DNA of 58,228 bases from a bacterium (GTDB taxonomy: Bacteria; UBA10199; 2-02-FULL-44-16; JAAZCA01). A program made the translations under genes and the position numbers. Location of the stretch: NCBI GenBank assembly GCA_041658465.1, contig JBBAAC010000001.1:1-58228 (forward strand). Direction: 5' to 3'. The notes beneath the pieces are model-generated. The model was not told the origin of the DNA. It was given only the letters and a program-made list of their open reading frames with translations, and did not search any database. Below, in pieces: positions 10,222-57,906 of the stretch. The stretch's first letter is position 1. Each line of letters opens with the position of its first letter.

Positions 10222-10700
10222 GGCTGGCCTGCCCGCCGGCTGGCAGGCGGGCAAACCGACACCGAGTTATTTCCAGCTCATGCGGCTAACGGTGGAATTA
10301 TAGCCTTCGCGGTCCCCATTGCTCGAAGCCTGCCTGCCGGTAGGCAGGCCGCGGGTCATCGCTTGCTCCGTGCCAGTGTCGTGTCCCATTGCATTGCCAC
10401 AAACGTGAAAACCCCGCTTACTGCATGCCAATACGCAAGTATATCATGGCGCATGATGAGCGGTGTCCCCAGCCCAGCTTCGAGCAATGGGGACCGCGGT
10501 GGCAGGTGATTCACCGTTAGCCTTATAAACTGACCTAGACTCGTTATCGGCTTGCGAGATGATGGGCTGGGGACACTGCTCCTTATGTGGCGAGGAGCAT
10601 AACCTGCCTGCGGGCTTGCGAGATGCCAGCCGCGGATCACCGCGTACTTTGGCACGTAGCCAGCCGCGGATCACCGCGTACTTTGGCACGGTGTCGGCTT
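10222..10700. repeat. Composite MITE-like structured repeat (R-element), locus 1, with a tandemly duplicated terminal segment
   Basis: The left arm (ccgacaccgagtt ... ggctaacggtgga ... gcggtccccattgctcgaagcc) is complementary to the right arm (gcttcgagcaatggggaccgc ... tcaccgttagcc ... actcgttatcggc). It has the same architecture as 47802-48215 and matches the single unit at 23048-23258. The segment agccgcggatcaccgcgtactttggcac occurs twice in tandem at 10627-10690. Confidence 0.8.
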
Positions 10701-12017
10701 GTCGATTATTTTTCCAACGAGGTCATATTCGTGAGCTTCCGTGATCTCCACGGTGGCGAATTCGCCCGCGGGCGCCAGGCCCTCGTTGATGTAGATCACC
10801 CCGTCGATGTCAGGGGCCTGGCCTTCATGACGCGCCTGGATCAGGTGCTCCGTCTCCTGCGACGGCCCTTCGACAAGGGCTGTGAGCCGCCTGCCGACGA
10901 GGGCCTGATTCTTGCGCTGCGAGATGGCGCGCTGCAACTCCATGATCCGCTGCCTTCGCTCCTCCGCGACCTCGGCTCGGATCCGCCCCCTGAGCCGGGC
11001 AGCGGGAGTGCCCTCTTCCGGCGAGTAGACGAATACGCCCAGGTGCTCGAATTCCGACTCGCGCACGAAGTCGAGGAGCGCTGAAAAATCATCGTCGGTC
11101 TCGCCTGGAAAACCGGCGATCAGGCTGGTGCGCAGCGCGACGCCGGGAAGCTCTTTTCTCATAAGCCCGATGAGGCGGCGTATCTCGGCTCCCTCTCCCT
11201 TGCGCCGCATGGCCGCGAGCACCCGATCGCTTATATGCTGGATGGGGATATCGAGATACCTGCATATCTCGCCATGCATCTTCATGGCCTCTATCACCGC
11301 CAGAGGGAAATCGTGCGGGTATGCGTAAAGCATTCTGATCCACTTCCTGCCCTGCAGGCTGCATAGCCTGCCGAGCAGCTCCGCCAGGTCGGCGCCTATG
11401 TCGCGGCCGTAGGCGGTCGTGTCCTGCGCGATGATGTTGAGCTCGCGCACGCCACGCGAGAGCATTTCGCGCGCCTCCTCCACTATCGAGTCGGGCGTTC
11501 GCGAACGAAACTTGCCGCGTATCCTCGGGATGATGCAGAACGAGCAGGGATGAAAGCATCCCTCCGCAATCTTTATGTACGCCATGTGCGGGGGCGTGGC
11601 AGCCACTCGAGGCGCCTCGTGATCGTATATATATGATGGCCGGCCTACCTGCACGCGCTGCCCGCCATCCAGGCCCTTCACAAGTTCCGCGACTCGATGG
11701 AACTCTCCGGCGCCGACAAAGAGATCCACCTCGGGAAACAGCTCCGCTATTTCCTCGCTGTAGCGCTGCGGCAGACACCCCGCCACGACGAGCAGCCTGC
11801 ATCTCCCGCGCTTTTTCTGCTGCGACATCTCGAGCACTGTCTCTATCGCCTCTTTCTTCGCGTCCTCGATAAATGCGCAGGTGTTCACCACGATGACCTC
11901 GGCCGCGGAGGGATCCTCGGTCAGCACGAATCCATCCTTGACCAGAAGGCCCAGCATCACCTCTGAATCGACGAGGTTTTTGGGACAACCGAGTGAAATA
12001 AAGTGAAGAGATGGCAT
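10671..12017 (-). CDS. rimO: Ribosomal protein S12 methylthiotransferase RimO (radical SAM MTTase with C-terminal TRAM domain)
   Basis: The N-terminus MPSLHFISLGCPKNLVDSEVMLGLL is typical of RimO. The radical SAM cluster is EGCFHPCSFCIIP. The TRAM-like end is FATVEITEAHEYDLVGKII. Confidence 0.85.
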   Translation of the reverse strand: MPSLHFISLGCPKNLVDSEVMLGLLVKDGFVLTEDPSAAEVIVVNTCAFIEDAKKEAIETVLEMSQQKKRGRCRLLVVAGCLPQRYSEEIAELFPEVDLFVGAGEFHRVAELVKGLDGGQRVQVGRPSYIYDHEAPRVAATPPHMAYIKIAEGCFHPCSFCIIPRIRGKFRSRTPDSIVEEAREMLSRGVRELNIIAQDTTAYGRDIGADLAELLGRLCSLQGRKWIRMLYAYPHDFPLAVIEAMKMHGEICRYLDIPIQHISDRVLAAMRRKGEGAEIRRLIGLMRKELPGVALRTSLIAGFPGETDDDFSALLDFVRESEFEHLGVFVYSPEEGTPAARLRGRIRAEVAEERRQRIMELQRAISQRKNQALVGRRLTALVEGPSQETEHLIQARHEGQAPDIDGVIYINEGLAPAGEFATVEITEAHEYDLVGKIIDKPTPCQSTR

Positions 12018-12055: not shown

Positions 12056-12135
12056 TCTACCCCACCCTGACCCTCCCCTTACAAAGGGGAGGGAACATTC
12101 CCCTCCTTTGTAAGGAGGGGCCAGGGGAGGTAGAT
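12056..12135. repeat. REP-like double hairpin (two inverted half-elements)
   Basis: tctaccccaccctgaccctccccttacaaaggggaggg is followed by its near reverse complement cccctcctttgtaaggaggggccaggggaggtagat. Related copies lie at 18781, 54622 and 57868. Confidence 0.85.
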
Positions 12136-18780: not shown

Positions 18781-18860
18781 TCTACCCCACCCTATCCCTC
18801 CCCTTACAAAGGGGAGGGTACGTACCCCTCCTTTGTAAGGAGGGGCGGGGGGAGGTAGAT
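18781..18860. repeat. REP-like double hairpin
   Basis: tctaccccaccctatccctccccttacaaaggggaggg plus the inverted partner cccctcctttgtaaggaggggcggggggaggtagat. Confidence 0.85.
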
Positions 18861-18873
18861 TCCGCCCTTACCA

Positions 18874-18918
18874 CCTTTCTTGCCTTTCTTGCCTTTCTTG
18901 CCTTTCTTGCCTTTCTCG
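18874..18918. repeat. Tandem 9-nt repeat (cctttcttg, four perfect units plus one degenerate unit) 24 nt upstream of ychF
   Basis: Direct reading gives cctttcttg cctttcttg cctttcttg cctttcttg cctttctcg. Confidence 0.9.
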
Positions 18919-18941
18919 CCCGTCTTTGGCACCATGCGCCC

Positions 18942-20052: not shown

Positions 20053-21591
20053 CTATTTAAAGACCGACGCACCGCCCGCAATGATCGCATGCACATGTTT
20101 CACGTAGGCCTTGGGGTCTTCAATGGGATCGAAGCCGATAGCAGGCATGGACTCCTGCGCACCTCGATCGATTGCCCACCTGAGCATCTCCGGCTCATAG
20201 GCGACTAGGGCTGCTGCAGGACTGAGCCGCGGTAAGCTCTCATACTCAAAATCCTTCAATTGAGCACCCGGCCCCCAAATATCCACGCCGAACAACGCGC
20301 GCTGGATATCTGACCACGTAAAATCTGTTCTTCGCTCGACTATGTACTGCGGCGGCGTGTAAACTCGGTCGTTTTGGCCAGGCGTCCAGATAATGCGTCT
20401 GATCGCCTCGAGGCCGCGTTGTCCGAATCGGGGAGGTTCTGTCCCGAACGTCACGCGCATTAAGGCCATGCCCAGATCGTGCGTGACTTCATGATCACGA
20501 TGCTCGGCCACAAATGCAGAATCATAACTCGCGTCCTCATGGGGCATAGCAGGATGTCCTGGTTTGGCTCTGGCGACGAGATTCCAGGCAAAGCCACTGT
20601 GTCGATCAACATCATAGACACGAAGGAACTCGGCTACCTGGTCTTGATTCCAGCCGAACTTCCCGGCTACCAATTGCGCAAGGTCTTCGACCTTCTCATC
20701 CCTATAGCTGCGATAGGGACATGGTCTCAGATTCTCCCAGTACTCCCTCCAGGCGTCCACCAGCGCACCGCCCAGGCTCGCATGTAACGGTCGCTCGTCT
20801 TTTCCATAGGCTTGCGTGAGTTCTCCGGGATACGAGATCAATGGCCGCTTTCCTATGACAGGGCCAAAGCGCTTTCGAATGTCCTCCCCAGTCCGGAGCA
20901 CATCCCATGACTTTTCAACGACCTGAGCTAAAAAGGCGCCCGCTGTTCCGTGTGCGTCAAACCAGTCAACATAATTCCAAGGTGGCGTGCCCTTGGCCCG
21001 CGCCTCATCGTAGATAAAGAGGGCCAGCTGACGTCCCAAGGCAAGCGGTGTATAGCTGTTAAAGCGGACCGGTTTCATGTAGCTCATATCGATTTCCCGC
21101 ACCCGACCGTCTTGATAGGGAGGAAATCGAAGGACTTTGTCGTTGTCCCGACTATTGAAATCGCAGCCTCGCCAACTCTGATCGATGATCGTGACCTTAT
21201 AGCCCAAATCCGCAAGCTGCCCTGCACGCTCATCTACAACCGCGTCGGCAGGAGAAGACGGCATATTTCTGCCGAACATAGGCGGATAGCCTGGATCAAG
21301 AAGGCTCATCGTCTTGATCATGACAACGTGGGGCGCAGGAGCTGCGACAAATCTCTCGTTCCTCTTTCGCACATCTTCCGGCGCCTCGGCAATCGCTGCG
21401 GAGACCTGCGAACGCGTCGACGTGACATCGTTATTTCCTTCGTTCATGACATATAAATCCTGAACGGTAGCATCCGCAGAAGAGATCTCACTCTCCGTCG
21501 CCACGCCCTCAGCGTTCATTATGCCGGCTGCCAGCACGCCGCTGCCTACGGCCCCGTTGTTTAGAACTCCTCCCTGGCCTGCGCTTGTCAT
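20053..21591 (-). CDS. Orphan 512-aa protein with one HExxH motif (HEVTH) and a low-complexity N-terminus
   Basis: AGGAGG lies upstream of the ATG at 21591. The motif context is AEHRDHEVTHDLGMAL. No other family was recognised. GC is visibly lower than in flanking genes. Confidence 0.55.
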   Translation of the reverse strand: MTSAGQGGVLNNGAVGSGVLAAGIMNAEGVATESEISSADATVQDLYVMNEGNNDVTSTRSQVSAAIAEAPEDVRKRNERFVAAPAPHVVMIKTMSLLDPGYPPMFGRNMPSSPADAVVDERAGQLADLGYKVTIIDQSWRGCDFNSRDNDKVLRFPPYQDGRVREIDMSYMKPVRFNSYTPLALGRQLALFIYDEARAKGTPPWNYVDWFDAHGTAGAFLAQVVEKSWDVLRTGEDIRKRFGPVIGKRPLISYPGELTQAYGKDERPLHASLGGALVDAWREYWENLRPCPYRSYRDEKVEDLAQLVAGKFGWNQDQVAEFLRVYDVDRHSGFAWNLVARAKPGHPAMPHEDASYDSAFVAEHRDHEVTHDLGMALMRVTFGTEPPRFGQRGLEAIRRIIWTPGQNDRVYTPPQYIVERRTDFTWSDIQRALFGVDIWGPGAQLKDFEYESLPRLSPAAALVAYEPEMLRWAIDRGAQESMPAIGFDPIEDPKAYVKHVHAIIAGGASVFK

Positions 21592-21760
21592 GGTGCCTCC
21601 TGTTCACAGATTTATTTTTGAATTCCAAACAAAAAGAGGCAAGGCCCTCTCCGGACCTAGCCCCCATGTCGCGGCTATACAAAATATACTCCTTTGCGGC
21701 AAGGAAAAATTACCCCCGTTTTCTACGTCGACCGACGACGCGTCTGTTCTGTATATTGTC

Positions 21761-23002
21761 TCAGGAGGGCTCGACCAGGCCCATGCCCGTATCGACGATC
21801 ATGGCTTTGTTCCGGCGGGGATCAAGGCCCTGTTTGCGTTTCGCATCGAAGCGCTGCATGTAGAGGGCCAGACCTGCGGCTGCAGATTTCTCAGCATCAA
21901 TGCCATGTGATGTCAGCAACGCATACGCCGCCTCAATGAGAGGATCGCTCACGCGGTACTTTCCGGTCTCGTTTCCTACAAATGCCAGCTTCACAAAGGA
22001 ATCTATGTCTTCGTCTGTAAAGATGCGGAAGGGTTTGCATCGTGCCGCCAGCTTGACCGCGCAACTCGGGTACGACTCCGGTTCTGCCCCGAAGACATGG
22101 GTTGAGATTACGCTCGTGACGCTTGCCGTGAGCCGCGGATCGCGCCGATGTTCCGATTCATTGCGCAGCGTCCGCTCTATCCAGTAGAGATAGTTTTCCA
22201 TGAGCCGCCCCGAACCAAAGGGCACGTATACCTCATCCGGCGCTTCGTTTAAGACCTCATGCACGTGCCAGTCGTAGAAGACCGCCTGCGGCTCGATCGT
22301 GCGCGTGGACGTGAGATCAATACCGTTCTCGTTGTTGCAGATTTTCTTGATGAGCTTTGGAGTCAACTTCCTTGATAAATTCGTCACATAGACATCTGCG
22401 CGAAGCCGCAGCAAAGCATCGAGTATGCCGGGGTTTATGGCCCTTCCCACGAGGATCTTCGGAGGCGGAAGATTATACATGGCAAACCGCACAGCCACGG
22501 CTGCGCCCTCGTTTCCTTCCGTAATGAGCGAAAGGCGGGGGATCGGCATGCGTTCCAGATCGTGTCGAGTGAGGATCCCGGCCCTGCGCTTTAAATATAA
22601 TGCCCGCGCGTAATCCCGACACAGCGTCGCCAGCTCCCACGCGGCCCTGTCCTTGATCGTGCCAGTTGGGTTGCTCAAGCGATCCGCTTCGTTTTTTATG
22701 TAGACTTCGCCATATCCATCCGCCGTGAGATCAAGCGGTATCACAGGTGTAGCCTTCCACTCCGGCGCGTGTGGATCGGCCTCCGCGTAGGCAGGGATGC
22801 CGTCGCCCCATTGATCCATGAGCTCTGGCGTCATGGATTCGGGATATGGGATCTCTTGCTTGATCTCTCGATCGATCGGGCCATCGTCCTCTGCTTGAGG
22901 TAACCCCGAAGCCGCCTGATAGCCGTCAATGCCGCAGGCAGAGAGACCTGCCAGGCCCCGCTGAAAGGCAACTGTAACCGTCATCGCCCACCCCTCCACC
23001 AT
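21761..23002 (-). CDS. Pyridoxal-phosphate-dependent enzyme, fold type II (Trp-synthase-beta / Cys-synthase / Thr-synthase superfamily); subfamily not resolved
   Basis: The PLP-lysine motif is NPTGTIKDRAAW. A glycine-rich loop equivalent is ITEGNEGAAVA, and PFGSGRLMEN is also present. An N-terminal extension of roughly 100 aa has no recognised similarity. Confidence 0.65.
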   Translation of the reverse strand: MVEGWAMTVTVAFQRGLAGLSACGIDGYQAASGLPQAEDDGPIDREIKQEIPYPESMTPELMDQWGDGIPAYAEADPHAPEWKATPVIPLDLTADGYGEVYIKNEADRLSNPTGTIKDRAAWELATLCRDYARALYLKRRAGILTRHDLERMPIPRLSLITEGNEGAAVAVRFAMYNLPPPKILVGRAINPGILDALLRLRADVYVTNLSRKLTPKLIKKICNNENGIDLTSTRTIEPQAVFYDWHVHEVLNEAPDEVYVPFGSGRLMENYLYWIERTLRNESEHRRDPRLTASVTSVISTHVFGAEPESYPSCAVKLAARCKPFRIFTDEDIDSFVKLAFVGNETGKYRVSDPLIEAAYALLTSHGIDAEKSAAAGLALYMQRFDAKRKQGLDPRRNKAMIVDTGMGLVEPS

Positions 23003-23047
23003 TAATTATCGGCCTGAAGGCCGGAAAGTTGCGCTATTTATGGCGGG

Positions 23048-23258
23048 CTGCGGAGTGGCACGCAGTAAGCGGGGTTCCGCCGTTTATCGATAGGCCGCGA
23101 ACAACGGCGCAGAATAAGCGGTGACCTGCGGCAGGCTTCGAGCAATGGGGACCGCGAAGGCTATAATTCCACCGTTAGCCGTATGAGCTGAGACCAACTC
23201 GGTGTCGGCTTGCGAGATGCCAGCCGCAGGTCGCCGCGTACTTCATGGCACGTAGCCA
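23048..23258. repeat. R-element, locus 2 (single unit, opposite orientation)
   Basis: gtggcacgcagtaagcggggttccgccgtttatcgataggcc...gcggtgacctgcggcaggcttcgagcaatggggaccgc...caccgttagcc...aactcggtgtcggcttgcgagatgccagccgcaggtcgccgcgtacttcatggcac is the reverse complement of the left unit at 47802-47995. Confidence 0.8.
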
Positions 23259-23340
23259 GGCGAATATTTGAATTCGGGCGTGACGCGCTGCATCAGTCGA
23301 TATCCTTGCTTTTCAAGCTGAAATCGGGTCTAAACGGCGC

Positions 23341-24897
23341 ATGCCGCCACTCTCCATACGCAAGATCGTCTTCATCGAACCAAAGGCACCCGGCAATCAT
23401 GTCTACTCAAAGTGGGGACTGCCCAGGCTCGGCACCCTCACGCTGGGCGCTATGCTCAAGCAGGCAGGTTATGAAGTAAAAATCTTCATCGAGGAGATCC
23501 GTGGCATCGACTGGGATGATGTCTTTGATGCGGATCTGGTCGGCATATCCTCGATCACCTCCACGGCGCCGCGCGCCTACGAGATGGCGAACATGGTGCG
23601 CAAGGCCGGCATCCCCGTATTCATGGGCGGACCGCACGTATCTTTCCTCGTCGAGGAGGCGCTCGCGCACTGCGACTACGTGCTCTGCGGTGAGGCCGAG
23701 GGATCGATCCTGCCGTTCATGGAGGCGATAAAGACCGGCGTAGGGCTCGAGTCGGTCTCCGGCCTCGCCTGGAAGTACGGCCACTCGATCCGCAAGAACG
23801 CGCTGGGCGAGCAGGTGATGGATCTGGACAGCCTGCCGTTTCCGGATTTCAGCCTCGTGGCAGGGAGCAAAAAGTTCAAGGGCGACCTCTCCGTGACTCC
23901 GATAATGACCTCGCGCGGCTGCCCGTTCGGTTGCAACTTCTGTTCGGTCACCGCGATGTTCGGCAGGCGCTACCGGTTCCGCTCGGTCGAGAATGTGATT
24001 GCGGAGCTCAAGCAGAGGAATCCATCCTGGGTCTTCTTCTATGACGACAACTTCGCAGCGCGGCCGGAGCACACGAAGGAGCTGCTGCGCAGGATGATCG
24101 ATGAGGGGATAAAGCCTAAGTGGAGCGCGCAGGTCCGCATCGACGCTGCAAACGACCCCGAGCTTCTGAGCCTTATGAAGAAGGCCGGCTGCGCCATCGT
24201 CTACATCGGCCTCGAGTCAATAAACCCCAAGACGCTGGCCGCGCTCAACAAGGGCCAGACGCCCGAGCAGATAGAAACCGCGATCCGCACCATCAACTCG
24301 TACGGGATCGGCATCCACGGGATGTTCATATTCGGAGCTGACCACGACGACCCGGCGACTATCAAGGCCACTGTGAAGTTCGCGAAGAAGAACGAACTCA
24401 CGTCGGTTCAGTTTATGATCCTAACGCCGCTGCCCGGCACTTACATATTCGAAAAGTTTGAGTCCGAGAACAGGCTCCTCTCGCGCGACTGGGGATACTA
24501 CGATGCACACCACGTGGTATTCGCCCCGAAGGGGATGAACGCCGTCCAGCTGCAGACCCTCACGATCAAGGCGATGCTCAAGTTCTACTCGCTCGGCAGC
24601 GTCCTGTCCGGGCTCAACCGCTTCGACATCTGGACGATGATGATACGCGCCTACGGCTGGAGGCTGACCAGAAAGACGCGCAGCAACCTGCGCGGCTTTG
24701 CCGAGCATTTGAAAGAGCTCTACCAGCATGCAGGAAACGGGCTCAATTCCGCAAGACAAGGCATCCAGCTCGGCGCACGAAAGACGACGGACGACCTCAA
24801 GGATATCATCCGCCGCGTCAACCTCGACCGCATCCGCGAGCTCAGGCAGGAGCGGCAGAGGCAATTGCCGGCCGAAAAAATAACCAAATCCCTGTAG
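23341..24897 (+). CDS. B12-binding-domain radical SAM protein (class B)
   Basis: The N-terminal Rossmann-like B12 domain is KIVFIEPKAPGNH...LGTLTLGAMLKQAGYEVKIFIEE. The radical SAM cluster is SRGCPFGCNFCSV. Confidence 0.8.
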   Translation: MPPLSIRKIVFIEPKAPGNHVYSKWGLPRLGTLTLGAMLKQAGYEVKIFIEEIRGIDWDDVFDADLVGISSITSTAPRAYEMANMVRKAGIPVFMGGPHVSFLVEEALAHCDYVLCGEAEGSILPFMEAIKTGVGLESVSGLAWKYGHSIRKNALGEQVMDLDSLPFPDFSLVAGSKKFKGDLSVTPIMTSRGCPFGCNFCSVTAMFGRRYRFRSVENVIAELKQRNPSWVFFYDDNFAARPEHTKELLRRMIDEGIKPKWSAQVRIDAANDPELLSLMKKAGCAIVYIGLESINPKTLAALNKGQTPEQIETAIRTINSYGIGIHGMFIFGADHDDPATIKATVKFAKKNELTSVQFMILTPLPGTYIFEKFESENRLLSRDWGYYDAHHVVFAPKGMNAVQLQTLTIKAMLKFYSLGSVLSGLNRFDIWTMMIRAYGWRLTRKTRSNLRGFAEHLKELYQHAGNGLNSARQGIQLGARKTTDDLKDIIRRVNLDRIRELRQERQRQLPAEKITKSL

Positions 24898-32779: not shown

Positions 32780-33079
32780 CCTGCCTCCCCTTGTGTCATT
32801 GCGGGCCCTTCGACGTTGGGCTTCGGCTGCTGAGCTCAGTCGAAGCCCTCAGGGCGAAGCCTGCCTGCCGGCAGGCAAGCAATCCCCCGCAAACAGTGCC
32901 GCCGCTTATTAGCGATTTCGACAATAAATGAAAATAAGCAACCGCATCCTTATTAAAGGAAACTTTAATTAGATGGACGCTTATTTAAGTTTAGGGCGTT
33001 ATCCTTAAATAAGAAATTTAAAGGCCATATATTACAGCTACTTACAACACCATCTTTTTTCGCCATCTCGGCTTAATTC

Positions 33080-33165: not shown

Positions 33166-34851
33166 GTGCCTGGCACCAAGTCCATATCCGAGGTCAAGGA
33201 TCTCTACGACCTCATCGAGCTCTATGCGAACCTCGATCGCAACAACGACGGTTTGCTGGGGCCCGGTGAAGTGTCAGCCGAGGAGATCAAGGCGGGAGAT
33301 AAGGAAAGCCCATCCGCTGGCGTACCGGATGGATTTCTTCAGCCCTGGGAGGTCATGGAGATGCGGGGCCCCACGGTCTTCAATCCCGTGGAGACGATCC
33401 GGATGAGGTCGTGGAACAAAGAGGCAGCATATAAAGGGTTCCCCGATATCCCATCTCTTCCTCGAGACGTCGAGATCGGCGGTGTGACCTACAAATCCGG
33501 AACGCCACTCCCCTTTCATTTATGTACACATTATTCAAGGGTCGCGGGCGGCGTACTCGCAAGGCCGACAATACTTCCATCAATACCGCAAATCACTTTT
33601 CCAGCGGATTCAGTAATGTCTTTTAGCTATGACTTCCATAGCTCGAATATTCGCACGCTCTCTGTTGTCTTAGGAGCAGATGCCACCATTAACGGAGTCT
33701 TTTGCAAAAAGGATACCCGCCTCTTTTTTAGTGATGGAAAGCTGTCCATGATTCAATCTGAACAAGGTTTTCTCATAAACAATGTGCGATATATACTCGC
33801 ATACTTCAAGGATGGGGCATTGGACTTCGGAGATCTCGCTGAAACTGCACGTCTTCCCGTCAATCAGCGCACTTCGTATCTCTTTCAGGGACGAGTTCAA
33901 TTCAATCGACGCGGCATGGTCAAATCAGGAAATCTTGCAGAGGATGTCCCAAGCCCTTATGGCGCACGTTACAAACACCCCGCAGGCGCTTATATCTCTT
34001 TCTTTGCTGATGGGACGCCAATGGAAGGTACGGTTGAATGTTTCAAGGCGCATTTCCCCGGCATTGTGCTTTCGGGCTCAGTCTCAGAAAAAGACATCCT
34101 GCTGGCTATGGAGACTTTCTCTCAACTGAGTCCGCAGACGCTCGCCAACATCAAAGGCATCCGTTTCCAATATGAAGAGTTGCCAACTACATTGGGAGAC
34201 AAGGCTGGTGGTTATGCAAATCCTTTTAACAAGACTATCTATATGAGAAAGGGCAACGCAGATTCGCCGACTGTCTCCTCTATCGCCCATGAAGCAGCAC
34301 ACATAAGGCATCTCACGCTCCAGGAGGAAACCACAAAACGCATCGCTGCTGCTACGCGACACCTAGATCCCTCGAACCCGAATGATATGGTCGAAGATGC
34401 CGCTATCACACGGCAAATTTTCTCAAGGAGTTTCGATGCAAAGTGGAGTCGTGCAGCAAGATATGATTTCAGCTTCTCGATCGCAGACCTTATCTCGTAT
34501 CAGCGTTCTTTGAAACAGTACGACGAAGGACACACCAGAACGAAAGTCAGCGACACTACTGACTATCCAAAAGAGGGATTCATAAATGACTACGGACGAG
34601 TGAGCATATGGGAAGATATTGCGACGCATGTACAAATGACCTACGAAAATCCCGAAAGATATGCGCAACTGATTGATGCCTATTCTTCTTTTTATTTAGA
34701 GCACCCCGACCAACGCCCCTATGCGCAGGTCTATCGCGCTAAACTGGAACTCCTGCGCGAATACGGCTTCATCACCGAGGCAAAGTACCGCGAGATCGTG
34801 CCGGTGCATCCTGACGTGGTCGCGTTCTGCGGGGCCGTGAATTGTCCGTAA
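33166..34851 (+). CDS. EF-hand plus MORN-variant-like repeat plus HExxH (HEAAH) protein, paralog 1
   Basis: It has a GTG start, and the upstream frame is closed by tga/tag/taa. The EF-hand loop DRNNDGLLGPGE is canonical. Repeats are FFSDGKLSMIQ, YFKDGALDFGDL and FFADGTPMEGTV. The HExxH context is SIAHEAAHIRHL, with a downstream EDIAT. The C-terminal end is YGFITEAKYREIVPVHPDVVAFCGAVNCP. Confidence 0.7.
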   Translation: MPGTKSISEVKDLYDLIELYANLDRNNDGLLGPGEVSAEEIKAGDKESPSAGVPDGFLQPWEVMEMRGPTVFNPVETIRMRSWNKEAAYKGFPDIPSLPRDVEIGGVTYKSGTPLPFHLCTHYSRVAGGVLARPTILPSIPQITFPADSVMSFSYDFHSSNIRTLSVVLGADATINGVFCKKDTRLFFSDGKLSMIQSEQGFLINNVRYILAYFKDGALDFGDLAETARLPVNQRTSYLFQGRVQFNRRGMVKSGNLAEDVPSPYGARYKHPAGAYISFFADGTPMEGTVECFKAHFPGIVLSGSVSEKDILLAMETFSQLSPQTLANIKGIRFQYEELPTTLGDKAGGYANPFNKTIYMRKGNADSPTVSSIAHEAAHIRHLTLQEETTKRIAAATRHLDPSNPNDMVEDAAITRQIFSRSFDAKWSRAARYDFSFSIADLISYQRSLKQYDEGHTRTKVSDTTDYPKEGFINDYGRVSIWEDIATHVQMTYENPERYAQLIDAYSSFYLEHPDQRPYAQVYRAKLELLREYGFITEAKYREIVPVHPDVVAFCGAVNCP

Positions 34852-45396: not shown

Positions 45397-45493
45397 ATGA
45401 ACCTCCACAAAATCCTAATACTTCCGACATGATCTTCGTTTCGATGCAGGAAGCAGGAAACACGAAGCAGGAAAAATCACAACTCAGTTTAAT

Positions 45494-45556
45494 CATGCTT
45501 CATGCTTCATGCTTCATGCTTCATGCTTCATGCTTCATGCTTCATGTCTCATGCCT
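45494..45556. repeat. Tandem heptanucleotide repeat (catgctt, seven perfect units plus two degenerate units)
   Basis: Direct reading. It begins 7 nt beyond the mlaF stop codon and lies about 97 nt upstream of the mlaD ATG. Confidence 0.95.
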
Positions 45557-45562
45557 CGCGCC

Positions 45563-46321
45563 TTATCCATCTCCCGTCTCCATCTCGCCCTTGATGAAAT
45601 TCTGCACGAGCGGATCGTCCGAGGAGAGGGCTTCATCCTTTGTCCCAACGAAACCGAACCGTCGATCGTGGATCATCGCAAGACGGTCCGTCACCGAAAA
45701 AGCTGCTTGCATGTCATGGGTCACGACCACCGAAGTAACGCCCAGCTTATCCTGCAACGACTTGATGAGGAGGCATATTCGCTTTGTGTTCGCCGGATCC
45801 AGACCGGTAGTCGGCTCATCGTAAAGTATGACATCCGGATTTGTGGCGATAGCTCGCGCGAGACCTACCCTCTTTTTCATTCCTCCGGAGAGATCGGCCG
45901 GCATCATTCCCTCGACCCCGGGCATACCGACGAGCCTCAGCTTCTCGGCCACTATCTGGGATATCTCGGGCTCAGAGTAATTGAAGTGCTCCCTGAGCGG
46001 ATAGGCGACGTTTTCCCGCACGGTGAGGGAGTCGAAGAGCGCGGCGCCCTGAAAGAGCATCCCCAACCGGCTGCGCATCTTCGAGAGTTCGCGCTCGCTC
46101 ATTTCGCTGAGCGCCTGCCCCTTAAACAGTACATGCCCAGTGTCAGGATGCAGCACGCCGAGCAGAAGCTTGAGAAGCACGGTCTTGCCCTTGCCCGACC
46201 CGCCTATGATCGTGATCGTCTCGCCCTTCAGGATCGACAGGTCGGCGCCGTCCAACACCTTGTTGTCGCCGAATGCCTTTGAAACCTTTTTGAACTCTAT
46301 TATCGGGATCATTTCACTCAT
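45563..46321 (-). CDS. mlaF: Mla-type ABC transporter ATP-binding protein
   Basis: Walker A is GGSGKGKTV, the signature is LSGGMKKRV and Walker B is VILYDEPT. Confidence 0.85.
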   Translation of the reverse strand: MSEMIPIIEFKKVSKAFGDNKVLDGADLSILKGETITIIGGSGKGKTVLLKLLLGVLHPDTGHVLFKGQALSEMSERELSKMRSRLGMLFQGAALFDSLTVRENVAYPLREHFNYSEPEISQIVAEKLRLVGMPGVEGMMPADLSGGMKKRVGLARAIATNPDVILYDEPTTGLDPANTKRICLLIKSLQDKLGVTSVVVTHDMQAAFSVTDRLAMIHDRRFGFVGTKDEALSSDDPLVQNFIKGEMETGDG

Positions 46322-47163: not shown

Positions 47164-47697
47164 CTACTCGTAATGGAACCCGTTGAAGAAGGTCTCAAAG
47201 GCCTCCTTCACGTCCGGATTCCCACCAGCCGGGGCGACGGAATAGAAATCAAACACGCAATAATTTTTGCGAACGATGACCAGATCTACATCCGTGGGCA
47301 CACCGTCCACAGAACCCGTGATGTGCTGGCGGAGCGCGCCCCTCTCGTTGAGCGTGAAGTTCTTCTCGTTCGTCACCTGTCGCTTTTCCAGCGCCGTGAT
47401 GATGTCGCCGGAGAGAGAATCCAGGGTGCGATCGGTGACGGATTTTCCACAATAGGCGTCAGTAGAGATCGAGGCCTTGAGACCCTCGTTGTAGAAGCTG
47501 ATCGTGCGCGCGCGCGTCTTCAGAGCTCGCCAGTCATCGGCCAGCACGCCGACCGTGTAATATTTATCGTGGCGGATATAGACCTTGCCCTGGCGGTAGG
47601 ATATTACGCCCTTGAACGGCTGCGCCTTGAAAATGCAGCCGGACAAGGCGCTGATCGCCAGTATGAGCAGAACTCCGCTGAATCTGATCCCCCGCAT
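47164..47697 (-). CDS. Lipoprotein of unknown function, first gene of the mla cluster
   Basis: The signal and lipobox is MRGIRFSGVLLILAISALSGC. It lies 11 nt upstream of mlaE. Confidence 0.55.
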   Translation of the reverse strand: MRGIRFSGVLLILAISALSGCIFKAQPFKGVISYRQGKVYIRHDKYYTVGVLADDWRALKTRARTISFYNEGLKASISTDAYCGKSVTDRTLDSLSGDIITALEKRQVTNEKNFTLNERGALRQHITGSVDGVPTDVDLVIVRKNYCVFDFYSVAPAGGNPDVKEAFETFFNGFHYE

Positions 47698-47801
47698 CAA
47701 AGGGAATATATCGGCATTCCGTACTGTTGACAAGGAGTTAGAAAGCTACGTACCACAAAGCGAGCAGGGCTCCCGGCCCTCTCGGCGAACGAGTCAACAC
47801 C

Positions 47802-48215
47802 GTGCCTAAGTACGCGGTGACCCACGGCTGGCATCTCGCAAGCCGACACCGAGTTGAGCTCAGATCGTATGGCTAACGGTGGATTTTCAGCCACCGCGGT
47901 CCCCATTGCTCGAAGCCTGCCGCAGGTCACCGCTCGCTCCGTGCCACTGATCGTGGCCCATCGATAAACGGGGGAAACCCGCTTGCTATGTGCCACTACG
48001 CGAGTTGAATCAAGGCGCAGGACGAGCGGGGTCCCCAGCCCAGCTTCGAGCAATGGGGACCGCAAAGCTAGTGATTCACCGTTAGCCTTATAAGTTGAGC
48101 TAAACTCGGTATCGGCTTGCGAGATGATGGGCTGGGGACCCCGCTTGAGCAGTGGCGATGGACAAGGTGCGTGAGGACGGAGCCAGCCGTGGGTCACCGC
48201 TTGCTTTGCCTGCAT
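47802..48215. repeat. R-element, locus 3: best-preserved composite copy, with perfect 19-nt terminal inverted repeats
   Basis: gcggtgacccacggctggc (47813-47831) is the exact reverse complement of gccagccgtgggtcaccgc (48183-48201). The internal arms pair as ccgacaccgagtt/aactcggtatcgg, ggctaacggtgga/tcaccgttagcc and gcggtccccattgctcgaagc/gcttcgagcaatggggaccgc. Confidence 0.85.
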
Positions 48216-48235
48216 TGCTGGCTTATGAGGCTGCA

Positions 48236-48937
48236 ATGAATTCCATTACCGCCAATATCGCCATGGTGCGGGAACGGATCGCGGCGGCGGCTGCGCGCGC
48301 GGGTCGCGATCCCGCCTCGATCAAGCTCGTCGCCGTATCCAAGACCAAAGCCACCGCGCAGATCAGGGAGGCCTTCGCCGCAGGGCAGAGGGTCTTTGGC
48401 GAGAGCTATGCCCAGGAGATGCGCGACAAATCCAGGGAACTCGCGGATCTGCCGATAGAATGGCATTTCATAGGGCATCTTCAGCGCAACAAGGCAAAAT
48501 ACGCCGTGGAGGCGCGCGCGGTGATCGAAACCGTGGATTCCCTCGATCTCGCGGAGGAGATAGGCAGGCAGCGGGCAAGGCGCGAAAGCGGCCCGGATCG
48601 TGCCTTGCCCGTCTTCATAGAGGTGAACATCGGCAACGAGAGCTCAAAATCAGGCGTTCAGCCGGAAGGAGTCCCTGAGCTAGCTGTGCGGATCAGCGCA
48701 CTGCCTGATCTCAGCCTGAAGGGACTCATGGTGATCCCGCCGTATGACCCTGATCCTGAGAAGAGCCGCCCGTATTTTCGCAGGCTGCGCGAGATCCTGG
48801 AGGAGTTCAATCGCGCGGCATTTGCCCGCAACCGGCTGCAGGAACTCTCCATGGGAATGAGCCACGACTTCGAGGCTGCCATCGAGGAGGGGGCGACCAT
48901 CGTGCGGGTGGGCACGGCGATCTTCGAGGGGAGGTGA
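48236..48937 (+). CDS. yggS: YggS-family pyridoxal-phosphate homeostasis protein
   Basis: KLVAVSKTK holds the PLP lysine. Other motifs are HFIGHLQRNK and SMGMSHDFEAAIEEGATIVRVGTAIF. The start was chosen at MNSITANI, just after the repeat element. Confidence 0.85.
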   Translation: MNSITANIAMVRERIAAAAARAGRDPASIKLVAVSKTKATAQIREAFAAGQRVFGESYAQEMRDKSRELADLPIEWHFIGHLQRNKAKYAVEARAVIETVDSLDLAEEIGRQRARRESGPDRALPVFIEVNIGNESSKSGVQPEGVPELAVRISALPDLSLKGLMVIPPYDPDPEKSRPYFRRLREILEEFNRAAFARNRLQELSMGMSHDFEAAIEEGATIVRVGTAIFEGR

Positions 48938-52718: not shown

Positions 52719-54599
52719 TTATTTCACCTCCGTCATATACGCGATATCATCATACGGCACGCGCCAGAGCGGTTGAGCCAGGCGCTTCTGGTCGAAGATG
52801 TGGCCGAAGAGGCCGATGGATCGGCCGACAACGAAGAGCGCGTTGAGGCAGCCGAGGTCGATGATCTCATCGACCTGTTCCTTGGTGAATAGATCCGGCA
52901 GGGACCAGAGCAGGTCCACGAACGTGATGCCGATGCAGCCGTCCACGTTAAGGATGAGCGTGCCCTTTTTCTGCGTGGTTATCGCCTCCACCTCGAGCGC
53001 GTATTTCAAGAGATCCGTCTTTGGGAAGGTCTTGAACACATATTCCTTGAGCTGGGTCACGCGCATGTCCGGGTTCGTCACGCTCTTCACGAGGTGCCCG
53101 ATGCCCGGGATATTCTCGCCCTTCTTCTTCATATCGCCTATGAACTCATCGGGCGTAAGGCCGGACGCATACGCGCGCTTGAAGTTCTGCGCAGCGCCGT
53201 CGATGGCGCCGCCGAAGCGCGGGCCGATCGTGAGCAGCCCGGATACGAGAGAAGAGATGATGTCCTTGCCCGCGCGCGCGGTGACGATGGCGTTGTGCGC
53301 GCCGGACACGGCCGGGCCGTGATCGGACGTGAGCATGAGCACTGTTTCGAGATACTTCGCGGCGAACTTCGGAAGCCGGCGCTTGAACCACAAAAGCCCG
53401 ATCACGCCGCCGATGCCGATCTCGTCACCGATCACCTGTGAGATCGGCATGTCGCTGTAGGTCAACTCCTCGCCCCTGTCGTTTGAGATCGTGCAGACGA
53501 AGGACGCTGGTTTGCGGATCACGCCTTCCTTGAGGGCCTGAGCGTAATCCATCGGGAACTTCGGAGCGGGGACCTCCGCAGCTGGTTTTATCGTGCCTTC
53601 CTTCACCAGCATGTCGAACGTGGCGCGTATCGCGTCGCCATAGTCGTCGAATGAAGTCGGCACCACTGCGCCGGCCTCCTTGAGCGCCGCGTTCTTCGCG
53701 TCTGCGGTCTCGAGGGCCGTGTCCGCCTTTGCGCCGGCGTGGCCGAACTGCACGCCCGCTGGGAACATCTTGGAGCAGGTGCCCGTGACCCAGATGACGA
53801 GCGGCTTTTTTATCTTTCCCGCCTTGAGCGCGTCCACGATCTTGAGTTCCTCGGTGCCGCCGATCTCTCCGAGGGCCGCGATCATCTTCACCTCCGGGAT
53901 CTGCTCGTAGCGCAGGATGTGATCCAGGAGCGTGGAGCCGGGATAGGCGTCTCCGCCGATGGCGATGCCCTCGTAGAGGCCGTCGGAGTTGCGCGCGATG
54001 ATGTTGTAGCACTCGTTGGAGAGCCCGCCCGACTTGGAGACGAAGCCCACGCTGCCTGGCCTGTGCAGCTTGCTCTCGACGATGTTATCTATGGTGCCCG
54101 CCGTGTTGCCGATCTTGAAGCAACCTGCCTTGATGCCGCCCACTGTGGCGGGCCCGATGATCCACTTGCCCTTCTCCCTGGCTGTGGCCGCCAGGATGCG
54201 GCTCTTGCGCTCCGGCACGCCCTCCGCGATCACGGCGATCGTCTTGATGTTCTGGTTCTCAAGCGCCTCCATGGTCGTGGGAAATGCGGAGCGCTGCGAG
54301 GAGAAGTTCACAACAACATCCGCAGTAGCGTGCTTATCGGTCGCCTCCTTGAGCGTGCGGTACATGGGCAGCAAGATTTCCTTCGCACCAAAGAACGCCT
54401 TGTGCCAGCCTGCGCGGGACGGATTCACGATAGCAGCAACAGAGGGTTTAGCGCGGCCGCAGGCAAAGTCAAAGTCCAGCATGCGCTGGATTGCGTTCTG
54501 CTGGTAGCCATAAACGATGGACTCAGTGTTTTTTGTAAAGAGCTCCGCGAAATTCATTGTGCCTCCATATTTTTTGCTCGCTGCTTTCTTTGCCGTCAT
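52719..54599 (-). CDS. aclA: ATP-citrate lyase alpha subunit (CoA-ligase alpha-like plus citrate-synthase-like domains)
   Basis: SIVYGYQQNAIQRMLDFDFACGR and the phosphohistidine loop GHAGA (VQFGHAGAKA) are present. The C-terminal citrate-synthase-like part is TSDHGPAVSGAHN. The gene is paired with aclB. Confidence 0.9.
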   Translation of the reverse strand: MTAKKAASKKYGGTMNFAELFTKNTESIVYGYQQNAIQRMLDFDFACGRAKPSVAAIVNPSRAGWHKAFFGAKEILLPMYRTLKEATDKHATADVVVNFSSQRSAFPTTMEALENQNIKTIAVIAEGVPERKSRILAATAREKGKWIIGPATVGGIKAGCFKIGNTAGTIDNIVESKLHRPGSVGFVSKSGGLSNECYNIIARNSDGLYEGIAIGGDAYPGSTLLDHILRYEQIPEVKMIAALGEIGGTEELKIVDALKAGKIKKPLVIWVTGTCSKMFPAGVQFGHAGAKADTALETADAKNAALKEAGAVVPTSFDDYGDAIRATFDMLVKEGTIKPAAEVPAPKFPMDYAQALKEGVIRKPASFVCTISNDRGEELTYSDMPISQVIGDEIGIGGVIGLLWFKRRLPKFAAKYLETVLMLTSDHGPAVSGAHNAIVTARAGKDIISSLVSGLLTIGPRFGGAIDGAAQNFKRAYASGLTPDEFIGDMKKKGENIPGIGHLVKSVTNPDMRVTQLKEYVFKTFPKTDLLKYALEVEAITTQKKGTLILNVDGCIGITFVDLLWSLPDLFTKEQVDEIIDLGCLNALFVVGRSIGLFGHIFDQKRLAQPLWRVPYDDIAYMTEVK

Positions 54600-54621
54600 T
54601 TCATCCTCACTGTATCCACCA

Positions 54622-54702
54622 TTCCCCTCCTTTGTAAGGAGGGGTAAGGGGAGGTAGATCCTTGTTCTACCCCCTCCAACTCCCCCTTACAAAGGGGGAG
54701 GG
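54622..54702. repeat. REP-like double hairpin (half-elements in swapped order) between aclB and aclA
   Basis: ttcccctcctttgtaaggaggggtaaggggaggtaga ... tctaccccctccaactcccccttacaaagggggaggg. Confidence 0.85.
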
Positions 54703-57597: not shown

Positions 57598-57867
57598 ACG
57601 ATTGACTCCTCCGTGATGGAACTGCGTTCTCCTCCCTTATCGCGTTATTGACAGAAAAGTTGCGGGGTTTTTTCACACATGAAGATTGCGCTTGAGATCG
57701 GACCAATAGCGCCTTGGATTAGCACTGTCCGTAAGGACTTCGATCACATCAATTATAGAATGGAAAACCACCATTCATCCTGCTCGAGGGTCCTCCTGAT
57801 CTCCTTACCTTTGAAGATCGCAATTTTCGTATCCATACGACTCCGTGTGAGACTATCGGTAGACTGA

Positions 57868-57906
57868 TCTACCCCCTCCTAACCTCCCCCTTACAAAGGG
57901 GGAGGG
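57868..57906. repeat. REP-like single half-element just downstream of icd
   Basis: tctaccccctcctaacctcccccttacaaagggggaggg. Confidence 0.8.

Follow-up and report, generated by a model that had tools for sequence, protein, structure and literature searches.

Hairpin-forming intergenic DNA repeats with a conserved centre and variable, paired stems in a single bacterial genus: a probable family of non-autonomous elements of the REPIN or MITE kind

The window examined in this work, a 58,228-nt stretch of bacterial DNA (contig JBBAAC010000001.1 of assembly GCA_041658465.1, positions 1 to 58,228), carries at three intergenic loci a palindromic repeat that probably represents a family of hairpin-forming DNA elements rather than an RNA gene. 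An initial annotation of this DNA had described the repeat as a roughly 200-nt, arm-paired unit, either a miniature inverted-repeat transposable element (MITE) or a structured RNA in appearance, at locus 1 (10222-10700), locus 2 (23048-23258, reverse orientation) and locus 3 (47802-48215); it is indeed found at these places far beyond chance, with BLAST E-values against the genome reaching 1e-58 to 1e-159. A repeat search within the window showed that the 194 nt at 47808-48001 are 85% complementary to 23050-23243, and that 10251-10334 resembles 47838-47921 at 82% and 23130-23213 at 93%. With a covariance model (R1), five 124-nt units were located, at 10225-10351 (+), 10458-10581 (-), 23116-23239 (-), 47812-47935 (+) and 48024-48146 (-). 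The real unit is therefore 124 nt long, and the 200 nt first described take in one unit together with what remains of an outer unit's arm, while the partial inverted copies reported at loci 1 and 3 are borne out by the two reverse-oriented units there. At both loci, two inverted units and their outer arms make up a giant hairpin of 430-470 nt. No transposase lies in the window, as had been stated.

Comparison with the genome of a sister species places the element at locus 3 between about 47733 and 48199, the sequence cttgctttgcc... beyond 48199 being native flank. The element begins with the remnant 5' arm of an outer unit of stem type T4, gctacgtaccacaaagcgagcagggctcccggccctctcggcgaacgagtcaacaccg (47733..47801, +), recognised by homology both to the 5' arm of intact T4 units and to the module GCTCCGTGCCAAGAAGTGCGCGGGGCACCCCCGTTCATCGCTCAGCAAGCCGACACCG that precedes most long copies; the remnant terminates in the recurrent motif (A/G)(T/C)CAACACCG, equivalent to AAGCCGACACCG, and is missing at the orthologous site of the sister genome. 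It is followed by a unit of type T1 (47812..47935, +; R1 122.5 bits, E 1e-26), with a 28-bp closing stem, ACGCGGTGACCCACGGCTGGCATCTCGCAA / TTGCTCGAAGCCTGCCGCAGGTCACCGC, and the conserved core GCCGACACCGAGT..GGCTAACGGTGG..CCGCGGTCCCCA. The spacer (47936..48023, +) contains cgataaacgggggaaacccgcttgctatgtgccac (about 47963-47997), the outer T4 unit's 3' arm, as assigned from the alignment of 14 long copies and the match to intact T4 3' arms. Next comes an inverted T2 unit (48024..48146, -; R1 120.1 bits) with the stem GAGCGGGGTCCCCAGCCCATCA / AGCTGGGCTGGGGACCCCGCTC, whose core is predicted to pair with that of the T1 unit to form the giant hairpin. The outer right arm (48147..48199, +) is delimited by the long-copy alignment and the empty site of the sister, and includes 48183-48200, the perfect complement of 47814-47831; the terminal repeat described earlier as a perfect 19-nt match thus stands as an inverted match, its perfect part being 18 nt within a 25-nt arm matching at 92%. 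This copy is without the consensus terminus CGTACTTTGGCACGGTGTCGGCTTGC. The composite at locus 3 is predicted to fold as one giant hairpin on both strands (RNA minimum free energy -251 and -253 kcal/mol, z -11.9 and -14.1, on the two strands). A 179-aa open reading frame lies across this hairpin element (47697-48236, -), and a public assembly annotates a 172-aa gene there; the frame is almost certainly spurious.

The other two loci are built from the same parts. The first unit of locus 1 (10225..10351, +; R1 87.3 bits) has a closing stem made of GC mini-palindromes, CCTGCCCGCCGGCTGGCAGGCGGGC / GCCTGCCTGCCGGTAGGCAGGC, and the orthologous intergenic site of the sister also carries a family unit, single and diverged. 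Its inverted partner is a T2 unit (10458..10581, -; R1 117.3 bits), beyond which the repeat search identified a terminal module, gccagccgcggatcaccgcgtactttggcacg, in two tandem copies followed by gtgtcggcttg (10608..10701, +). Locus 2 (23049..23255, -) comprises a single T1 unit (23116-23239; R1 124.9 bits), to which a 3' arm left over from an outer T4-type unit (23049-23115) and GTGCCATGAAGTACGCGG as 5' flank are joined. Upstream of it, a two-gene patch (21500-23048) is lacking from the syntenic position of the sister genome; downstream, 23281-24800 is conserved at 78%, so that the repeat sits at the edge of an indel. A short fragment near 32860, formerly counted as a relative of the repeat, is merely a 26-nt GC mini-palindrome (GCCTGCC-TGCC-GGCAGGC) plus CGAAGCC. 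This isolated mini-palindrome, cgaaGCCTGCCtgccGGCAGGCaagc (32855..32880, +), was found by the repeat search and gives no R1 match; it is no copy of the unit, its one relationship being with a small hairpin module, since GC mini-palindromes of this kind are inserted in some members of the family.

Across the family, the basic unit measures about 124-165 nt and consists of a core of about 65 nt closed by a GC-rich stem of 20-28 bp (about 28 bp in the units of the window). The core holds three conserved blocks, G[C/T]CGACAC[C/G]GA, GGCTAACG and GCG[G/T]TCCC, with two hypervariable spacers between them; 77 distinct sequences of one hypervariable segment (V1) occur among 95 units. The sequence of the closing stem is free, yet its two sides stay paired and in register around the core. 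In the window's genome (hereafter G000) at least 7 stem types are present, all of them paired, with T1 (ACGCGGTGACCYGCGGCTGGCA...) in 49 copies, T2 in 30 and T3 to T7 rarer, while the sister genome (G001) has at least 9, different and compensated. The family is thus unusual in that a centre of about 65 nt is conserved while the long closing stems change in sequence yet remain paired. In both species the units have imperfect inverted ends, AGTACGCG / CGCTTGCT, and outside these a direct GTGCC(A)C on each side.

Units are further combined into larger arrangements. In the long form seen at loci 1 and 3, a T1 unit is nested in T4 arms, with a spacer separating it from the inverted T2 unit and an outer arm at the far end; the T1 unit also occurs alone (at least 16 times) and as one of several alternative cargos of a separate hairpin element, which we call the shell. 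The layout of the shell is TCGAGGTACGCC..GTGTCGGCTTCGGGT, cargo, ACCCGAAGCCGACA..GTACACCTCGA (G000 C5:25670, C14:5233, C72:291, C27:318, C82:7637 and others); at least 3 alternative cargos were seen, including the T1 unit and a different 112-nt hairpin core, and the motif GTGTCGGCTT is common to the shell and the family core. Identity along the copies is mosaic, with T2 modules 98-100% identical among more diverged neighbouring modules, and single-base indels among copies leave no conserved reading frame.

G000 is a metagenome-assembled genome (MAG) of 2.45 Mb in 280 contigs, with 58% GC and 94% completeness, in which many contigs break at repeats. BLAST with the locus-3 stretch 47790-48215 (426 nt) recovered many partial copies and 14 full-length ones, which are 67-92% identical (79-92% for 12 of the 13 other than locus 3 itself). 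A profile search with the long form found 95 loci, amounting to 25,869 bp or 1.05% of the assembly and including 17 at contig ends; a search with the core profile gave 125 cores, 88 of them full-length. With about 95 loci genome-wide, the family extends well beyond the local duplication that the initial annotation had considered as an alternative. All loci are intergenic, with neighbouring genes divergent in 18 cases, convergent in 16 and in tandem in 25, that is, with no bias and no preferred orientation, and many copies are interrupted or truncated. Single housekeeping genes were found between two inverted long-form copies at C206:2426-4095, C65:4929-7050 and C280:531-2500; they encode a superoxide dismutase, a radical SAM protein and a TPR lipoprotein. 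Such bracketing by inverted copies could favour inversion or deletion through recombination.

Pairing of the closing stem was evaluated on an alignment of 40 units from both species, in which the 28-bp closing helix was scored. Pairing holds in 85.2% of the cells of this alignment and falls to 36-43% once the partner is shifted by 1-3 columns; both sides have changed in 24 of the 28 stem pairs (265 cells), the covariation score of the stem is 0.572 compared with 0.175 in shuffles (0 of 500 as high), and G-U cells are almost absent among the changed pairs. Mismatches are strand-symmetric, with G:T to A:C ratios of 34:47 in T1 and 32:35 in T2. Compensatory changes, whose absence had been proposed as a sign against an RNA, are therefore abundant in the closing stem, which supports pairing, but they carry no strand bias, which speaks against RNA and is as expected of a DNA hairpin or inverted repeat. 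No covariation was detected within the core, where the candidate helices AGCC/GGCT and CGGTGG/CCACCG pair in 74.7% of cases against 75.6% in shuffles. Rfam 15 returned no family at gathering thresholds, and its permissive E-value mode only long-hairpin artefacts, among them a plant miRNA hairpin at 55.7 bits against a gathering score of 197. Furthermore, a consensus scan of the element found no sigma-70-like promoter and no intrinsic-terminator-like site, and the roughly 125 copies are randomly oriented relative to genes. The strand symmetry, the lack of inner covariation and the lack of an Rfam match are together in keeping with a hairpin or inverted repeat of DNA whose centre is sequence-specific, and not with a folded, strand-specific RNA; on these sequence data the structured-RNA alternative is disfavoured.

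In all searches made, the family was restricted to a single genus. Run on 93 class genomes from 73 genera, model R1 gave matches in G000 and in its one sister species of the same genus, G001, alone, and BLAST over 40 relatives returned short fragments solely in G001. An exact 20-mer of the element was not found in any GTDB species representative, and a degenerate core pattern run across the same representatives matched only 'MAG: bacterium isolate SKS1.bin41', which is G001 itself. A metagenome scan located the family in no sample but its source and a sibling (Ga0265296), whose strain is the same at 100% identity; the strain of an ENA assembly is identical as well.

The sister genome is syntenic with the window at 72-78% identity and carries about 35 units, some of them single, of about 160 nt, and others joined into inverted A/B doublets, so that copy number differs about fourfold between the two species (about 125 cores in G000). 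Site occupancy is largely shared: of about 16 G001 unit sites that could be evaluated, about 11 have a family member at the corresponding place in G000. Gains and losses are nevertheless evident, locus 3 being empty in G001 (104 nt, compared with 459 nt in G000) and five G001 unit sites being empty, or holding another repeat family, in G000. At orthologous sites the copies differ by species, with core ends TCTCGCAA...TTGCTCGA and stems T1 or T2 in G000, and core ends GGCGAATGA...TCATTCGCC and GGCTCCCGCCC-type stems in G001. These species-specific variants at shared sites, together with the mosaic identity among copies, point to concerted evolution through gene conversion, or else to repeated insertion into 'safe' intergenic sites that already hold a copy. 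G001 also has a palindromic family of its own, of GCAAGCAACGC-type 9-mers (C16, L049 1396-1501; L143 2190-2240), one copy of which sits where the window has the hairpin element of locus 3.

Regarding an enzyme able to mobilise the family, the only multicopy transposase-like genes of G000 are two families of Y1 (HUH) genes. Matches to Y1_Tnp number 7 in G000 and 5 in G001, and the best NCBIfam match of these genes is the REP-associated tyrosine transposase (RAYT; REP, repetitive extragenic palindromic), below its cut-off. Family A encodes a protein of 215 aa; its three copies occupy non-orthologous sites, and in both species the palindrome GTGCCWGGCAC brackets the gene (G000 C187, C72 and C225; G001 L139-L141). 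As the cognate transposase this family was rejected: the palindrome is low-copy (19 occurrences) and specific to the gene in both species, and only the GTGCC pentamer is common to it and the unit flanks. Two further copies of GTGCCWGGCAC occur within the gene-cassette array of the window, at 33166 and 37503. Family B is an insertion sequence (IS) of about 1.06 kb with a 242-aa Y1 transposase, in 3-4 copies (G000 C169:2368-3426, C29:15436-16512, C81 and C36:1-345), with terminal inverted repeats (TIRs) CAGACGGAGCGG / CCGCTCCGTCTG, which is unusual, given that IS200-type elements normally lack TIRs. A single-copy, orthologous Y1 gene of the C30 type has no units within 1.5 kb. The Y1 proteins also include a 328-aa type fused to DnaA_C.

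Searches for other enzymes in G000 detected no TnpB, no DDE_Tnp_1 and no multicopy DDE gene, and only one rve gene (C10) and one IS110 gene. An origin in TnpB/IscB omega-RNA or in IS110 bridge-RNA was accordingly discarded, as there is no TnpB and the lone IS110-family transposase (C241:264-1493, on a short contig) has unrelated flanks and no further copy. We also considered that an autonomous copy might lie between paired ends, but the genes there are the housekeeping genes mentioned above, and no IS with unit ends was found in this 94%-complete MAG. One reverse-transcriptase gene was noted (C12:4450-5070, in a 465-aa frame), with relatives in the sister genome; RVT_1 matches are present in each genome, and nothing links these genes to the repeats in either. 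The MITE-like description given initially holds in kind, in that there are about 95 intergenic loci with inverted repeats and presence/absence differences from the sister; neither a matching autonomous IS nor a clear target-site duplication was found. The direct GTGCC(A)C flanks are identical at all copies, and pairs of empty and filled sites, at 72-78% identity, are too diverged for the junctions to be read.

With the integration of these findings, we consider it probable that the repeats form a genus-specific family of non-coding, intergenic, hairpin-forming DNA elements, non-autonomous and of the REPIN/MITE kind, and not an RNA gene. The family would spread slowly, in the form of a single-stranded DNA hairpin that is mobilised in trans. 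By elimination, the sole candidates for the trans-acting enzyme are the RAYT/IS200-like Y1 HUH transposases, an assignment that we put forward only tentatively. The conserved core may act as the part that is recognised by sequence, with the stem supplying structure only; the direct GTGCC(A)C flanks could be HUH cleavage sites or equally a site-specific duplication. Nesting of units in one another and their pairing in inverted orientation give the giant hairpins of loci 1 and 3, and likeness within a genome might be kept by gene conversion or by renewed insertion into occupied sites.

Several observations weigh against this interpretation. The ends of both Y1-IS families match the element no better than shuffles do in Smith-Waterman comparisons, and no Y1 gene is consistently flanked by units, the C225 copy being the only one with units nearby and none being adjacent in G001. 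Co-distribution of Y1 genes with the family was rejected as a line of support, since such genes occur in 78 of the 93 class genomes. No transposition event was seen, and three independent assemblies of one population are 100% identical. Compensation in the stem could also arise without selection, by template-switch correction of quasi-palindromes, and the high site-sharing between genomes at 72-78% identity could mean a host function at those sites.

Among known systems, the family works most like a REPIN or a MITE, yet fails defining features of both. REPINs are hairpin-forming doublets of REP sequences associated with RAYT Y1 transposases, and in the work cited are described for Group 2/3 RAYTs alone (Bertels & Rainey; PMC3116915; bioRxiv 10.1101/2021.07.10.451892). 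The present family resembles them in being extragenic, palindromic and present in about a hundred copies (95 loci, about 125 cores), as singlets and as inverted hairpin doublets, and in being lineage-restricted and vertically persistent, with many orthologous sites shared, diversity within the genome, and RAYT/IS200-like Y1 genes at hand; concerted evolution through gene conversion and insertion into occupied sites would both recall REPIN populations (bioRxiv 10.1101/2021.07.10.451892). Conversely, REPINs measure about 100 bp and have conserved REP arms, each with a 14-bp palindrome, around a variable spacer, whereas here units of 124-165 nt and doublets of 430-470 nt have a conserved centre and long stems that vary and covary. 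Moreover, there is no single-copy RAYT flanked by the repeats, the Y1 families being multicopy, at non-orthologous sites and with unrelated end palindromes of their own. Group 2/3 RAYTs are, by our own reading, mainly gammaproteobacterial.

Other mosaic repeats used as comparators are the enterobacterial bacterial interspersed mosaic elements (BIMEs, or mosaic REP clusters), the rhizobial RIME-type mosaic elements and the BOX elements of Streptococcus pneumoniae. Like these, the family is a modular mosaic of intergenic DNA, in which a small number of palindromic modules recur in varying order and orientation, and its predicted secondary structure is strong. It has no sequence relationship to them, however, its modules are much longer, and they are nested (unit within unit within shell) instead of simply juxtaposed, a single conserved core being shared among stems of many kinds. 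Known bacterial MITEs, for instance Correia/NEMIS, ERIC and Nezha, have conserved TIRs that match those of a parent IS, and variable target-site duplications. Elements under 600 bp that are non-coding and intergenic, with inverted ends, high copy number and presence/absence differences, describe both them and the present family, but here no parent IS was found, the stems in the place of TIRs vary freely and the GTGCC(A)C flank is constant. Finally, the palindrome-associated transposable elements (PATEs) derived from IS200/IS605 share the proposed single-strand hairpin recognition by a Y1 HUH enzyme, as well as a short conserved motif that flanks the hairpin on either side at constant spacing, where HUH cleavage sites could lie. 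In contrast to PATEs, which keep two different IS ends, the units are near-symmetric hairpins, and beyond the GTGCC pentamer their ends are unlike those of the resident IS200-like elements (GTGCCWGGCAC in family A, CAGACGGAGCGG in family B).

The same evidence bears on other explanations. That the units are host-domesticated structural or protein-binding DNA sites, in the manner of BIMEs binding IHF or gyrase, with the core as a binding platform on a cruciform or hairpin and with spread and homogenisation by recombination, we regard as unlikely, even though the core is conserved as sequence and not as structure, the motif AAGCCGACAC recurs in the core, in the terminal modules and in the unrelated shell arms, occupancy of orthologous sites is high between the species, and the mosaicism is of a gene-conversion-like type. 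Such sites would not readily fit the lack of positional bias relative to genes, the roughly fourfold copy-number difference between sisters, the site-specific gains and losses and the many interrupted or truncated copies, and no candidate binding protein was identified. A classical cut-and-paste MITE of a DDE transposon would take the ends AGTACGCG.../...CGCTTGCT or CGCGTACT as its transposase sites and GTGCC(A)C as a site-specific target duplication, its partner having been lost or left unassembled. The inverted-repeat ends with direct GTGCCAC flanks in both species are in line with such an origin, as are the one rve-domain gene on C10 and the state of an assembly that is 94% complete, in 280 contigs, and often broken at repeats. 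We nonetheless find it improbable: the 'duplication' is the same sequence at every copy, unlike in known bacterial MITEs, no DDE_Tnp_1 or multicopy DDE gene was found, the genes between paired copies are ordinary housekeeping ones, and the would-be TIRs vary freely around a conserved centre, the reverse of a MITE. In addition, many sites are shared across species at about 75% identity, which is unexpected for short-lived MITEs (bioRxiv 10.1101/2021.07.10.451892).

A multicopy structured noncoding RNA family, or a mobile element bearing a guide, bridge or omega-type RNA with the hypervariable loops as programmable segments, could account for the long and strongly covarying closing helix, for the conserved centre with two hypervariable segments (V1 being distinct in most units) and for the very stable predicted folds. 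It is very improbable in the face of the missing Rfam family, the strand-symmetric mismatches, the near absence of G-U among changed pairs, the lack of internal covariation and of promoter or terminator signals, and the random orientation relative to genes; nor is there a TnpB or IscB, and the single IS110 is unrelated. The idea that the variable loops act as guides to flanking targets was tried and dropped, as they showed no excess match to the unit's own flanks. A small probability may also be given to a new class of hairpin element in which the conserved loop of about 65 nt, and not the inverted ends, is the functional determinant: this could be the recognition module of a novel system for mobilising single-strand DNA, in a deep lineage that is uncultured and whose only RAYT-like Y1 enzymes are diverged, or a domesticated, structured DNA or RNA module with two hypervariable loops, employed by the host at about 100 intergenic sites.

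Other repeats were noticed alongside the family. A second palindromic family, of classic REPIN size and of the form TCTACCCC...CCCCTTACAAAGGGGAGGG plus complement, occurs in the window at 12056-12135, 18781-18860, 54580-54659 and 57866-57901; it reaches a BLAST depth of about 93 in G000, is abundant in the sister, and sometimes has a GC mini-palindrome inside. The window also contains a tandem of the heptamer TCATGCT (45479-45569; five overlapping 35-nt copies at 14-nt spacing) and a tandem of the 9-mer CCTTTCTTG (18865-18926; five overlapping 26-nt copies at 9-nt spacing).

Whatever its mode of spread, the family has practical consequences for work on this genus. It explains much of the fragmentation of the G000 assembly, since 17 contig ends lie in family copies, and it yields spurious open reading frames, such as the 179-aa frame at locus 3, so that it should be masked before searches for small RNAs or regulatory hairpins. 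REPIN biology has so far come mainly from the Gammaproteobacteria. If our interpretation is correct, the family would constitute a population of REPIN-like repeats that persists vertically in a bacterial lineage both uncultured and unclassified, in a genome that has an ATP-citrate lyase gene. Its architecture is inverted with respect to both REPINs and MITEs, the loop being conserved and the stems free but paired, and it would thus provide a natural experiment on what a hairpin-recognising mobilisation machinery reads.

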